Sequence record: PQ657772.1
Reading direction: 5' to 3' (one strand)
DNA: 64,000 nt
Source of the DNA: Escherichia phage EC.P1
Below the pieces are notes generated by a model. The model had not been told where the DNA came from, ran no database searches, and was given only the letters and a program-made list of their open reading frames with translations. Positions within the stretch are counted from its first letter, which is position 1, and every line of letters starts with the position of its first letter. Positions 60,700-63,546 of the stretch are shown here, piece by piece. A program made the translations under genes and the position numbers.

Positions 60700-60790
60700 C
60701 ACCTATGCACCCTGTGGGCTAGTTTTTGTCTATGCGTATATAATAGCAAAGGGACTGACCGGAGTCAATCCCTTTTTTTATTCTTTTTTG
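60700..60790. repeat. conserved intergenic element, copy 1, with terminator-like hairpin (60749..60772) and T-run
   Basis: gcaccctgtgggc ... atataatagcaaagggactgaccggagtcaatccctttttt; near-identical 3' half at 63440..63546. Confidence 0.6.
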
Positions 60791-60991
60791 TTAGATGATT
60801 CTCCAATCATCAACGATCATGGTAAGATACCGAACCAGTGATTCGAGTGATTCGTGTTCTCGATAGTCTGCCGCTCCACCAGCGGTACAAGTACAGCCGA
60901 TTAAGCCGTTTTGTAGTTCCTGGATCTTTACGTCGATCTGGTTGGCTTTAGCTTCTTTCAGTACTTCAACCAGGGCGATAGCGATAGACAT
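60791..60991 (-). CDS. hypothetical early protein (66 aa)
   Basis: ORF downstream of promoter cassette. Confidence 0.5.
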   Translation of the reverse strand: MSIAIALVEVLKEAKANQIDVKIQELQNGLIGCTCTAGGAADYREHESLESLVRYLTMIVDDWRII

Positions 60992-61046
60992 AATGTTTTA
61001 CTCCAAACTATTGGCGGGAGAACTATTCCCCCGCTCTATGTAAAAC

Positions 61047-61074
61047 ATTATACATTACTGGTTAGTACTGTCAA
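61047..61074 (-). promoter_or_regulatory. sigma70-like promoter (TTGACA, 16 nt, TATAAT) plus 5'UTR hairpin
   Basis: Minus strand TTGACAgtactaaccagtaatgTATAAT then GAGCGGGGGAATAGTTCTCCCGCC. Confidence 0.6.
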
Positions 61075-61081
61075 ATAGTTT

Positions 61082-61339
61082 TTATGAAATATCTTCGATG
61101 TAGTCGGCCCATTTCATTTTTTCAGTACTGTCAATGGCTACCGGATTATTTGGATCAAACCATTCACCATCACCGCAATACATACCCACGGCTACGGTTT
61201 TATAGCCATCCTGGGCCGTACACCACGACATTGCACGATAGATATGGCCTTTAACTGGTTGCAGTACTGGTAACGTTTTATGGTCTTCTACGTAGGCCAT
61301 AGCTTGAGGATTTACCCGATATTGTGTGAACTGATCCAT
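61082..61339 (-). CDS. hypothetical early protein (85 aa)
   Basis: AAGGGGA upstream of ATG. Confidence 0.5.
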   Translation of the reverse strand: MDQFTQYRVNPQAMAYVEDHKTLPVLQPVKGHIYRAMSWCTAQDGYKTVAVGMYCGDGEWFDPNNPVAIDSTEKMKWADYIEDIS

Positions 61340-61367
61340 TATGTTTCCCCTTGTAGTTAGTAAAGTT

Positions 61368-61396
61368 ATTACATCAGTACTATCAAGCTATGTCAA
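61368..61396 (-). promoter_or_regulatory. sigma70-like promoter (TTGACA, 17 nt, TGTAAT)
   Basis: Minus strand TTGACAtagcttgatagtactgaTGTAAT. Confidence 0.45.
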
Positions 61397-61415
61397 TAGT
61401 ACTGAAATAAAACTT

Positions 61416-61640
61416 TTAGATTAGATTATTGAGGCCGTCAATGGTAGACTCACTTTCTTCTTTCTCCCATTGTCGGTAGTACTTCCATGCTTCATGATAG
61501 GTGGCGATTAGTTCATCTTTTTGATCCTGGTTACATGCCAGTACTGAATCACGGTGAGCGGTGTTATAGATAGAATCGAATGATTTCTTCTCTTCTGCCA
61601 GGTTAGCTACTTCCCGCATCAGTTCATCAAAGTTAGCCAT
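61416..61640 (-). CDS. hypothetical early protein (74 aa)
   Basis: AAAGGAG upstream of ATG. Confidence 0.55.
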   Translation of the reverse strand: MANFDELMREVANLAEEKKSFDSIYNTAHRDSVLACNQDQKDELIATYHEAWKYYRQWEKEESESTIDGLNNLI

Positions 61641-61687
61641 TTTATTACTCCTTTTAGTGGGGGAGGATATCTCCCCCTATGCAAAAC

Positions 61688-61715
61688 ATTATACTTTGTT
61701 TTAGTTATTATGCAA
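61688..61715 (-). promoter_or_regulatory. sigma70-like promoter (TTGCAT, 16 nt, TATAAT) plus 5'UTR hairpin
   Basis: Minus strand TTGCATaataactaaaacaaagTATAAT then GGGGGAGatatCCTCCCCC. Confidence 0.6.
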
Positions 61716-61971
61716 GTACTTTTTTCATATAAACATTAAATTCTACACCGCCGTAACCTTCCACGATGATATGTTTTGCGTTATCACGTTTGCACATAGT
61801 GAAACCATCGTTTACGTGTTTTGCATTTTCCAGGGCGACATCACCGATAGCGGCACATACGGCACTAATAACAGTATTCCGCAAAGTACTGGTATCATTG
61901 GCGGTCATAGTAGTTTGCAGTACTACGTTGTCGTATACGTGTGCATTGATAGTGATTTCGATAGTGTTCAT
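61708..61971 (-). CDS. hypothetical early protein (87 aa; start revised to MNTIEITI...)
   Basis: Track ORF 61708..62025 runs into the promoter cassette; AGGAGA precedes the ATG at 61971. Confidence 0.55.
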   Translation of the reverse strand: MNTIEITINAHVYDNVVLQTTMTANDTSTLRNTVISAVCAAIGDVALENAKHVNDGFTMCKRDNAKHIIVEGYGGVEFNVYMKKVLA

Positions 61972-62023
61972 GGTGTATCTCCTGGACTTGAGGGGAAACC
62001 ATTTCCCCCTCTCGATATAAAAC

Positions 62024-62051
62024 ATTATACGTTAATCTAACTACAATGCAA
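62024..62051 (-). promoter_or_regulatory. sigma70-like promoter (TTGCAT, 16 nt, TATAAT) plus 5'UTR hairpin
   Basis: Minus strand TTGCATtgtagttagattaacgTATAAT then GAGAGGGGGAAATGGTTTCCCCTC. Confidence 0.6.
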
Positions 62052-62058
62052 GTACTTT

Positions 62059-62250
62059 TTAAATTTTATTTCCGATATAGTCCGGCATGTTCTTTTCAGT
62101 CATACGCTTTGCTAATGTCTGCATATGGCTTATAGCGTTCAAGGTGTCTTCCTCCAGGGATGAATCAAGATAATCAGGATCATTCTTCACCTTGCAATGA
62201 TTATGATATCGTAGTACTGCCAGTACTTTTTTAACTTCTTCTACTGTCAT
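62059..62250 (-). CDS. hypothetical early protein (63 aa)
   Basis: ATGA stop/start overlap with upstream gene. Confidence 0.5.
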   Translation of the reverse strand: MTVEEVKKVLAVLRYHNHCKVKNDPDYLDSSLEEDTLNAISHMQTLAKRMTEKNMPDYIGNKI

Positions 62251-62519
62251 AATAAGTACCCCACTTCGTTAGCTTTCAGGTTAGTATCAATCATCAGTGG
62301 ATTTTTGTAGTTCACAAAACGAGTAGTTTTCTCGATAGCGAAACCCATATAATCCAGCTTACTAACAGTACATTCATTCTTAAAAACTTCTTTCGCTGCA
62401 TCGATGGCTGATTGCATGGATAACCGACCATCTAAATTAATGTTTCCAAATGATCCACCAGCAGAAGTAGGATTACCGTTCATATCTTTAATGATCATAG
62501 TAGCGGAGTAGCTGGACAT
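62247..62519 (-). CDS. hypothetical early protein (90 aa)
   Basis: ORF downstream of promoter cassette. Confidence 0.55.
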   Translation of the reverse strand: MSSYSATMIIKDMNGNPTSAGGSFGNINLDGRLSMQSAIDAAKEVFKNECTVSKLDYMGFAIEKTTRFVNYKNPLMIDTNLKANEVGYLL

Positions 62520-62574
62520 AATTTTGTTTCCTTTTATTGGTGTGGGGAGAACTATTCTCCCCTTGATGTAAACT

Positions 62575-62602
62575 ATTATACAGTACTGATATACTTTGTC
62601 AA
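62575..62602 (-). promoter_or_regulatory. sigma70-like promoter (TTGACA, 16 nt, TATAAT) plus 5'UTR hairpin
   Basis: Minus strand TTGACAaagtatatcagtactgTATAAT then GGGGAGAAtagTTCTCCCC (perfect 8-bp stem). Confidence 0.65.
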
Positions 62603-62608
62603 ATACTT

Positions 62609-63016
62609 TTATTCGCCCATATAGATTAGATTATCATCGCCTACATAGGGATCGCAAACGTTGATTTCTTCGCAGTACTTAGTGAATATATCATCATAGT
62701 GACCGATATCACGATCCCAAAAACCAGTGCCGTGACCTTCGCGAGTAAGAAAGAGATCATGACCTGCATGACTATAAGTATAATCAGGATTATGGTGTTT
62801 TTGTACTGTTTCCATATCTTCACCATGTACAGCAAGGAAACGTGAACATGCAATCACTGCCGCTTGATGGGCTTGCTCTGATAATTCATAATCTTCCAGG
62901 TAATCGCCGTTCTCATTGTGTACAGTACTGAATTGCATAGCTTCAATGTAACCAGCGACCATTGCAGCATGATTTTTATCGTTGGCGATGGACCGAGCTT
63001 GATTAGTAGTAGTCAT
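62609..63016 (-). CDS. hypothetical early protein (135 aa)
   Basis: ORF downstream of promoter cassette; nested 62641..62853 is alternative-frame. Confidence 0.55.
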   Translation of the reverse strand: MTTTNQARSIANDKNHAAMVAGYIEAMQFSTVHNENGDYLEDYELSEQAHQAAVIACSRFLAVHGEDMETVQKHHNPDYTYSHAGHDLFLTREGHGTGFWDRDIGHYDDIFTKYCEEINVCDPYVGDDNLIYMGE

Positions 63017-63068
63017 GATTTTATTCCTTTTAGTATCGGGGAGAACTATTCTCCCCTTGATGTAAACT

Positions 63069-63096
63069 ATTATACAGTACTGATATACTTTGTCAA
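63069..63096 (-). promoter_or_regulatory. sigma70-like promoter (TTGACA, 16 nt, TATAAT) plus 5'UTR hairpin
   Basis: Near-identical copy of the 62521..62608 cassette. Confidence 0.65.
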
Positions 63097-63100
63097 ATAC

Positions 63101-63322
63101 TTAATTACGGATAAAGTGATAAAGACCATTATCATCATTAACGCCCCATACTGATTTACCATTTAAACCAGTGAAGCCGGATTGCAATTCAATATGGAAA
63201 CCGTTAGCATCAACGACGAAAACTTTTTTATTTTCATCCCGATAGCATTGATATTCTTCACCTGCTTTAAATGCTGCATCATTCAGAAGATTTGAAGCGT
63301 GAACGCAGGTCATAGTAGTCAT
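63101..63322 (-). CDS. hypothetical early protein (73 aa; start revised to MTTMTCVH...)
   Basis: Track ORF 63101..63379 runs into the promoter cassette; AAAAGGAA precedes the ATG at 63322. Confidence 0.5.
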   Translation of the reverse strand: MTTMTCVHASNLLNDAAFKAGEEYQCYRDENKKVFVVDANGFHIELQSGFTGLNGKSVWGVNDDNGLYHFIRN

Positions 63323-63377
63323 CGTCTTGATTCCTTTTAGTACCAGGGAGAACCATTTCCCCCTCTCGATATAAAAC

Positions 63378-63405
63378 ATTATACGCTCATTGAGATAGTT
63401 TGCAA
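63378..63405 (-). promoter_or_regulatory. sigma70-like promoter (TTGCAA, 16 nt, TATAAT) plus 5'UTR hairpin
   Basis: Minus strand TTGCAAactatctcaatgagcgTATAAT then GAGAGGGGGAAATGGTTCTCCC. Confidence 0.6.
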
Positions 63406-63439
63406 GTACTTTTTATCAAATAGTTTTCAGTACTGAATA

Positions 63440-63546
63440 CTTATATAATAGATACACTTCCGCACCCTATGGGTCAGTGAGTTATCTCTCAATGGATATA
63501 TAATAGCAAAGGGACTGACCGGAGTCAATCCCTTTTTTAATCTTTT
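63440..63546. repeat. conserved intergenic element, copy 2, with terminator-like hairpin (63509..63532) and T-run
   Basis: gcaccctatgggtc ... atataatagcaaagggactgaccggagtcaatcccttttttaatc. Confidence 0.6.

Follow-up and report, generated by a model that had tools for sequence, protein, structure and literature searches.

A repeated intergenic element of Escherichia phage EC.P1, found twice in the stretch of 64,000 nucleotides that we analysed (sequence record PQ657772.1; this whole stretch is called the window below), is probably a cassette which ends a transcript of the gene strand, restarts transcription at an overlapping promoter of the host type, and produces a new RNA that opens with a conserved folded motif. 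Each copy consists of two modules on the minus strand, which is the gene strand here: module A, made of A-tracts, a hairpin and UUUGCUAUUAU, and module B, an RNA domain of about 50 nucleotides (nt). Taken alone, the hairpin is nothing unusual and has been annotated as a terminator before, probably with a dual role like that of the promoter-early stem-loops (PeSLs) of other phages; the RNA domain corresponds to no Rfam family and to no description in the papers searched.

A first-pass annotation of the window had described a conserved element of about 100 bp, present twice in gene-free gaps of the early region, and this description holds. The two copies share an exact block of 42 nt, TATATAATAGCAAAGGGACTGACCGGAGTCAATCCCTTTTTT, at 60737-60778 and 63497-63538, which lies within about 110 nt of wider similarity (82% identity over 112 alignment columns, 60683-60789 versus 63439-63548). 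The 22-nt hairpin core, GGGACTGACCGGAGTCAATCCC, occurs exactly twice in the window, at 60751-60772 and 63511-63532, with 0 occurrences expected from 100 shuffles. Both copies sit in gaps between minus-strand genes, the second of which turned out to be wider than described (63323-63546), because the listed start of an open reading frame (ORF) at 63379 falls in a -10 box and the homologue of this gene in phage G17 starts at the equivalent of 63322. The ATG of the listed ORF 63101-63379 (63377-63379) overlaps the TATAAT box of a predicted promoter at 63378-63405, and the gene most likely starts at 63322, as annotated in G17, where it is a 222-nt gene corresponding to 63101-63322. A comparison of short ORFs in the two gaps found none common to both, and a short ORF was thus rejected as the basis of the element. 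As to further copies, a covariance-model search with filters off found no third one in the window; related genomes, however, carry four copies of the full element per terminal repeat, and the other two should therefore lie just past the window end. The parts of module A, with the promoter that overlaps it, are the following.

60773-60789, minus strand: phased A-tracts of copy 1 (AAAAAAGAATAAAAAAA), one base past the stop codon of ORF 60791-60991
63533-63548, minus strand: phased A-tracts of copy 2 (AAAAAAGATTAAAAAA), overlapping the stop codon (63547-63549) of a kinase-like gene
60748-60775 (core 60751-60772), minus strand: predicted terminator hairpin of copy 1, AAAGGGAUUGAC-UCCG-GUCAGUCCCUUU followed by GCUAUUAU, from terminator scan and folding
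63508-63535 (core 63511-63532), minus strand: predicted terminator hairpin of copy 2, identical to that of copy 1, from terminator scan
60740-60768, minus strand: predicted promoter of copy 1, with -35 TTGACT (60763-60768) in the hairpin, a 17-bp spacer, TGc (60746-60748) and -10 TATTAT (60740-60745)
63500-63528, minus strand: predicted promoter of copy 2, with -35 TTGACT (63523-63528), -10 TATTAT (63500-63505) and TGc before the -10

The hairpin of module A is most likely an intrinsic terminator of the gene strand, to judge from its sequence and folding. In minus-strand RNA it has a 9-bp stem closed by a C(UCCG)G tetraloop and followed by UUUGCUAUUAU, and the terminator scan calls the site on this strand only. 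It lies 14-18 nt past the stop codons in the window and 6-18 nt past gene ends in G17, whose depositors annotated both homologues as minus-strand ARNOLD terminators; the records of G17, Munch and GAP32 label homologues as a terminator or a stem-loop. The outer four stem pairs vary with compensation (GGGA/UCCC, GGGG/CCCC, GUAC/GUAC, AAGG/CCUU and GAGG/CCUC), and outer pairs changed on both sides were counted in 30 cells versus 3.7 in shuffles, a count that is partly circular and leans towards structure, as the hairpin set had been selected for pairing. Like the intrinsic terminators deposited in GenBank for G17, Munch, UE-S1 and GAP32, module A has a GC-containing hairpin, a stable tetraloop and a U-rich tract right after a gene-strand stop codon. 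It differs from ordinary ones in its interrupted U-tract and in a hairpin sequence that is kept across genera, the latter because the hairpin also carries TTGAC.

The strand on which the hairpin works had been read differently in the first-pass annotation, which took it for a plus-strand intrinsic terminator that could block antisense transcription or form the 3' end of a plus-strand small RNA, and which saw in the A-rich tract on its other side a sign of potentially bidirectional termination. Folding did confirm a stable hairpin, but it is more stable in minus-strand RNA (-19.5 kcal/mol, z -5.4), where one stem position holds a G.U pair, than in plus-strand RNA (-13.2 kcal/mol, z -2.9), where the same position is a C.A mismatch. 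Of 57 distinct TTGAC-containing hairpins collected in related phages, 55 are more stable as gene-strand RNA; the mean is -14.8 kcal/mol there and -8.4 kcal/mol on the opposite strand, where values of -5 to -7 kcal/mol are frequent. In favour of the plus strand, 6-7 T follow the stem there without interruption, and relatives carry small RNA genes which are antisense to the coding strand and end at shared hairpins. The best plus-strand promoters upstream in the window, on the other hand, reach 9/12 consensus matches, which is the shuffle level and does not favour a plus-strand small RNA, and a plus-strand terminator would not require the conserved A-tracts, TTGAC and TGnTAttAT. We consider a plus-strand role as the main function very unlikely. 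The A-rich tract, which precedes the hairpin in almost all members of the family, is better explained as the UP-like A-tracts of the overlapping promoter, while doubling as the A-side of the hairpin; some plus-strand, or weak bidirectional, termination may still occur. The suggestion that the element ends an early transcription unit fits well with the predicted gene-strand terminator.

The same DNA is most likely also a strong sigma-70 promoter of the host type, which the first-pass annotation had missed together with the structured RNA domain at its predicted start. A promoter scan found TTGACT-17-TATTAT in both copies, with 10/12 consensus matches plus the TG (TTGACT-17-TGcTATTAT in full). 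Transcription is predicted to start at A60733 in copy 1 and A63493 in copy 2, each the A of a conserved CAU, as judged from the conserved spacing between the -10 box and module B. Upstream of the promoter lie two A-tracts about 11 bp apart; UP elements, and the A-tracts of T4 early promoters, occupy similar positions, and the UP consensus was reportedly described by Estrem et al. in 1998. With T4-type early promoters and promoters with UP elements, module A shares near-consensus boxes, a 17-bp spacer, TGn and phased upstream A-tracts, and it differs from them in that its -35 box is embedded in a hairpin at the RNA level. Promoters of the RpoD type with UP-like elements have been predicted in phage CBB (PMC5259590), and likewise in the GAP32 record; genome papers on Rak2-like phages give such predicted promoters together with lists of terminators.

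Neither function alone would account for module A. The fixed TTGAC (invariant across the family while the remaining stem varies), TGn-TAttAT at 17 bp and the A-tracts are left unexplained by termination and thus point to a promoter. Conversely, the compensated stem, the T-run that follows it though a promoter spacer needs none, and the G.U asymmetry between the strands are left unexplained by promoter function and thus point to an RNA terminator. In several phages a ribosome-binding site and an ATG follow within about 35 nt of the hairpin-promoter, with no other promoter between, and in the GAP32 record elements of the same architecture are labelled as promoters at some sites and as terminators or stem-loops at others.

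Module A resembles, as far as its sequence can tell, the PeSLs, composite terminator/promoter cassettes of T4-type phages (Arbiol et al. 2010, PMC2839356; Comeau et al. 2014, PMC4122927), which are the closest described system and for which promoter activity, terminator activity and mini-circle formation have been shown experimentally (PMC2839356, PMC4122927). Both are short repeated intergenic cassettes among small genes without assigned function, both have a strong early promoter of the sigma-70 type with an AT-rich upstream part and a stem-loop terminating upstream transcription (promoter and terminator both being predicted in the case of module A), and both have G.U pairs in their stems. 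The PeSL features found in both window copies are near-consensus -35 and -10 boxes (as a consensus match), upstream A-tracts and a stable stem-loop. The arrangement is different, as the stem-loop of a PeSL usually lies between the -35 and -10 boxes or over the -10, whereas here the stem encloses the -35 box and the U-tract carries the extended -10. A PeSL also runs straight into a Shine-Dalgarno sequence and a start codon, while the window copies have module B and a second promoter instead; the distance from the -10 box to the ATG is about 195 nt in copy 1 and about 180 nt in copy 2, and a direct run-in of the PeSL type is seen only in some sister copies. Finally, PeSLs belong to T4-type phages and module A to the terminal repeat of Rak2-like jumbo phages.

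This likeness raises the idea that the element is chiefly a recombination linker, offering PeSL-like homology for the shuffling of small early genes. PeSLs of T4-type phages were shown to mediate gene shuffling (PMC2839356), and a different promoter cassette of the same region flanks a gene-sized difference of 494 bp between the window and phage PBECO4. At the two window copies, though, no junction of an insertion or deletion was seen, PBECO4 and G17 being collinear with the window through both of them in a direct comparison, and the fact that TTGAC, the TGn -10 and module B are conserved over at least six host genera indicates selection on function and not on homology alone. A linking role would be compatible with the terminator/promoter cassette that we favour, but as the chief function it seems hardly probable at all. 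An apparent break of homology with PBECO4 at copy 2 was discarded as a megablast artefact caused by the 494-bp cassette difference.

Module B begins at the predicted start and is a conserved structured RNA, as covariation demonstrates. Its two copies in the window were scored with a covariance model (R1) that was built with two helices, P1 and P2.

60691-60737, minus strand: module B of copy 1, short class (R1, 41.3 bits, E 1.6e-7)
63446-63497, minus strand: module B of copy 2, full class (R1, 67.9 bits, E 4e-14)

The common plan extends over about 50 nt from the predicted start and comprises a variable P1, which is a stem of 3-5 bp with an A-rich loop (AGAUAA, GCGAAA or AGAACAA), a near-invariant P2 of the form (R)CCC-AYA-GGG(U), then GC, a purine tract and a YRYCY tail. 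Copy 2 shows it in full, with P1 UGAG-AGAUAA-CUCA at 63478-63491, P2 A-CCC-AUA-GGG-U at 63464-63474, and after P2 the GC, the purine tract and the tail GUAUCU. In copy 1, all that is left of P1 is UAG/CUA on either side of an A-rich stretch, and P2 (CCC-ACA-GGG, 60710-60718) is followed by UGC and the tail GUAUCC (60695-60700). All four modelled pairs of P1 change on both sides, in 144 cells versus 53.5 in shuffles for the phage loci, and at least 13 different P1 stems were found. P1 cells are paired in 92-94% of cases, and the covariation score is 0.44 compared with 0.14 in shuffles and 0.09 or less with the partners slid; this covariation holds both in the phage set and in the metagenome set. 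P2 is invariant and thus uninformative, except for two cells in which C-G has become U-A. RNAalifold, run on the alignment made by the model, returned the same P1 and P2. G.U pairs occur in 56 cells and C.A in 1 cell, and this 56:1 excess identifies the functional strand as the sense strand of the promoter.

These results bear on another reading, in which only the gene-strand terminator is real, the promoter match is fortuitous, and the 50 nt are a site in double-stranded DNA for a phage or host protein, for instance an operator or else a signal for packaging or replication; a plain protein-binding site had also been among the proposals of the first-pass annotation. The near invariance of P2 and the flanking GC would be expected of a protein site, the element is confined to the terminal repeat, and single-sequence folds of module B are unremarkable. 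P1, on the contrary, varies freely and yet stays complementary across its many stems, and neither duplex DNA nor a cruciform would be expected to show the strand-specific excess of G.U over C.A. Module B also keeps a fixed distance to the -35 and -10 boxes in both orientations, even where the promoter has no hairpin. A DNA site of this kind is in our opinion quite improbable, and we favour an RNA domain anchored at a promoter.

Additional pairings were considered for module B. Pairing of the 3' tail with the 5' region or with the P1 loop, as a closing helix or a pseudoknot, was rejected, since duplex energies within sequences were no better than those across sequences (z -0.7), and so was a 3-bp tail helix P3, paired in 62.5% of cases versus 63.2% in shuffles. 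An alternative helix GGGUGC/GYRYCY, which would compete with P2, is paired in 89.8% of cases versus 33-65% with the partners slid. Its changes are all one-sided and compatible with wobble (U or C opposite G, A or G opposite U), and the register check in alignment A6 was spoiled by an insertion column. A GGGUG/YRYCY helix as an alternative to P2 is therefore put forward here as a possibility.

The wider distribution of module B is informative about its role. A nhmmer profile made from the four G17 copies collected dozens of relatives in the early regions of RaK2, CBB, GAP32, Hallingskeid, Munch, Yen9-04 and pEa47, and the family spans jumbo phages of Escherichia, Klebsiella, Salmonella, Cronobacter, Pectobacterium, Erwinia and Yersinia. 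The downstream half, that is module B, also occurs alone and on either strand, from which it follows that the element is composite. Each copy found with nhmmer stands behind a -35/-10 pair. The covariance model identified 95 copies of module B in phage loci, two of them being the window copies, and 82 more in metagenome contigs, so that a clade holds dozens of copies. In 67 of the 74 hits caught by a strict -10 pattern the hexamer ends 2-4 nt before the model start, and the hits missed by the pattern have, by eye, a -10 of the CATAAT or GATAAT type at the same place. The distance between module B and its promoter is thus fixed in nearly all members, in both orientations, also for promoters without a hairpin.

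The phage loci hold 92 distinct units of module B, 26 of which are arranged in convergent pairs. At least 12 of the 92 have a GC-rich terminator 17-24 nt past module B, most of them opposite the coding strand, and these look, from their layout, like stand-alone small RNA genes of about 100 nt; one copy with its own terminator is at 15212-15308 of G17, on the plus strand. About 50 units, both window copies included, lack a terminator in the next 60 nt, which would make them leaders of mRNAs. In relatives outside Asteriusvirus, the convergent module B promoters were observed to flank a palindrome resembling a Fur box (GAGAATGATAATCATTCTC or GCGAATGATTATCATTTCGC), examples of these pairs being the following.

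L005, 22392-22508: convergent pair
L006, 21849-21965: convergent pair
L009, 26264-26386: convergent pair
L011, 8026-8161: convergent pair
L013, 1225-1358: convergent pair

The put RNA of phage HK022, like other promoter-proximal leader RNAs, is a structured RNA with two stem-loops that lies behind an early promoter. Module B is likewise a protein-free RNA with two stem-loops directly behind an early promoter, a likeness of layout, and it might thus be a cis-acting processive antiterminator which renders polymerase resistant to downstream early terminators. Such a function would agree with the lack of a protein-coding role and with the finding that, in G17, every sense-strand copy stands at the head of about 3 kb of sequence with further terminators inside it or at its end. 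It fits poorly with the roughly 12 units in which a strong terminator follows 17-24 nt later with no gene beyond, many of them opposite the gene strand, and with the 26 units in convergent pairs, where read-through would yield antisense RNA only. Copies that stand alone, are terminated and lie in antisense orientation argue instead for an RNA in its own right (a small RNA, a decoy, or a module for protein recognition or stability), and we regard a put-like, cis-acting antiterminator as unlikely.

Taken together, the cassette would work as follows. Host RNA polymerase arriving from the upstream early gene would transcribe the A-tract, the hairpin and UUUGCUAUUAU and stop there, as sequence, folding and covariation suggest. 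Transcription would restart about 7 nt downstream, at A60733 or A63493, from the promoter formed by the phased UP-like A-tracts, the -35 TTGACT in the hairpin, the 17-bp spacer and the extended -10 TGcTATTAT in the U-tract, as suggested by the consensus match and the conserved geometry. The new transcript would then open with module B as its 5' domain, the structure of which is given by covariation and the transcription of which we infer. Since no terminator follows module B in the window copies, it would serve there as the 5' leader of an mRNA running through a second promoter into gene 60212-60544 or 63101-63322, whereas in sister copies of related phages module B and its own terminator would form small RNA genes of about 100 nt.

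The second promoters of the two gaps are predicted as follows.

60598-60626, minus strand: second, ordinary early promoter of copy 1 (TTGACA-17-GATAAT), before gene 60212-60544
63378-63405, minus strand: second, ordinary early promoter of copy 2 (TTGCAA-16-TATAAT) with a D7 hairpin cassette of the 5' untranslated region (5'-UTR), before gene 63101-63322

Several points weigh against this scheme, beyond the circularity mentioned for the stem count. Each copy has the second strong promoter about 110-135 nt further downstream, and the gene that follows would seem to have no need of the hairpin promoter. The terminator, the promoter and the start site are sequence predictions for every member of the family. 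Termination is possibly partial, given the interruption of the U-tract in UUUGCUAUUAU, and the plus-strand hairpin (-13.2 kcal/mol, with 7 T in a row) could plausibly still act as a weak terminator. As to module B, copy 1 has no P1 compatible with the model, alignments A5 and A6 were fitted to the model and so lean towards structure, and single-sequence folds are not significantly more stable than shuffles (z -0.6 and -1.8).

Module B did not correspond to anything described in the sources that we searched. Among 4227 Rfam models none matched at gathering score in the whole window, nor at E of 5 or less in 60500-63600, and no tRNA, tmRNA or known RNA family was found. A module B pattern gave no match in 5,426 E. 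coli genomes, and a stricter one gave nothing in 185,579 GTDB species genomes. A looser pattern produced 12 matches in unrelated taxa of the GTDB set, six of them at E of 0.1 or less and with 19-25 bits, which we read as chance, and mimicry of a host RNA, or a host target, was accordingly discarded. Matches in IMG/VR were contigs that probably correspond to known Rak2-like isolates and four other contigs with promoter-anchored copies of module B. The literature searched contained neither a description of such an RNA motif or composite element in Rak2-like phages, nor a transcription map for these phages.

As a speculation, module B could be a module recognised by a protein that marks or stabilises the first phage transcripts, or else an abundant immediate-early small RNA or decoy. 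A bolder proposal, which we hold as tentative and would not call the likelier outcome, is that it represents a previously undescribed family of phage RNA, anchored at promoters and present about 10 times in each terminal repeat, hence about 20 times in a packaged genome, which would be transcribed by host polymerase once the repeat is available and would bind a conserved host or phage factor as a decoy or take-over riboregulator, maybe switching between the CCC/GGG hairpin and the GGGUG/YRYCY helix. In PA5oct, a jumbo phage described as related to the Rak2 group, two abundant non-coding RNAs of 236-451 nt arise from the direct terminal repeat, account for 2-5% of phage reads in early and mid infection, and reportedly resemble no other sequence (PMC7318152). 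They resemble module B in being non-coding and in coming from the terminal repeat of a jumbo phage, a likeness of setting only.

The window derives from an Asteriusvirus jumbo coliphage, and the region around the element shares 93-97% identity with members of this genus, such as WPEC3, fEgEco12, vB_Ec-M-J, G17, PBECO4 and 121Q. Both copies lie inside the direct terminal repeat of about 21 kb (annotated as 21.5 kb in vB_Ec-M-J), and the G17 record begins at the same point as the repeat boundary of vB_Ec-M-J; according to these two records, the boundary is also a physical genome end and falls at about 59291 in the window. Terminal repeats of about 20-21 kb have been published for Asteriusvirus on the basis of PhageTerm, and restriction digests confirm this for fEgEco12. 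The gene ending at copy 2 (63547-64000; G17 homologue L003 4249-4833) has a weak similarity to protein kinases (E 0.002, below the Pfam cut-off) and is annotated as a Ser/Thr kinase in several relatives; it may be an early kinase of host takeover.

Further repeated sequences were seen in the window. The Chi sequence, GCTGGTGG, occurs 6 times versus 0.31 expected, with the following positions from a sequence count.

60653-60660, minus strand: Chi site, between module B of copy 1 and the second promoter
60876-60883, minus strand: Chi site
62455-62462, minus strand: Chi site
1592, minus strand: Chi site
9215, minus strand: Chi site
18812, plus strand: Chi site

Three of them are no more than 3.2 kb away from the end of the terminal repeat (about 59291), with the active side facing RecBCD that enters there, and may serve to protect the DNA end; Chi also adjoins module B in other phages. 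The palindrome CAGTACTG is found 40 times in the window versus 0.75 expected (for example at 60605-60612, 63075-63082 and 63428-63435), within genes and repeatedly in promoter spacers just 5' of the -10 box, as in TTGACAaagtatatCAGTACTGcGATAAT. It recurs about 20 nt past module B in many phages, and may be a protein or modification site. Between 26400 and 59100 there are many diverged families of direct repeats (D1-D20) with spacings of about 210-480 bp, which have the appearance of small paralogous genes arrayed in tandem, upstream of the boundary of the terminal repeat. In the interval of 60-64 kb a near-consensus sigma-70 promoter of its own precedes nearly every small gene, and after this promoter, just before the ribosome-binding site, comes a 5'-UTR hairpin of the GGGGAGAAnnnnTTCTCCCC type. 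Two of the repeat families lie in this interval.

60143-60220: family D7, 5'-UTR hairpin cassette
61013-61090: family D7, 5'-UTR hairpin cassette
61654-61731: family D7, 5'-UTR hairpin cassette
61990-62067: family D7, 5'-UTR hairpin cassette
63344-63421: family D7, 5'-UTR hairpin cassette
62507-62608: family D15, promoter and 5'-UTR hairpin cassette
63005-63102: family D15, promoter and 5'-UTR hairpin cassette

The two D15 cassettes are nearly identical, share a 65-nt core with 100% identity and flank ORF 62609-63016 (135 aa). PBECO4 lacks exactly the 494-bp unit flanked by D15, with the junction inside the repeat, and this looks like the gain or loss of a gene cassette in the PeSL style.

Almost all small genes in the early terminal repeat of Rak2-like jumbo phages are without assigned function, and public records label the same type of element variously as a promoter, a terminator or a stem-loop. 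If the combined terminator/promoter reading is right, this early region would resemble a series of insulated units, of about 3 kb each in G17. The covariance model R1 may be used for the annotation of module B, which is a testable candidate for a regulatory or decoy RNA acting at the start of infection in therapeutically relevant coliphages.

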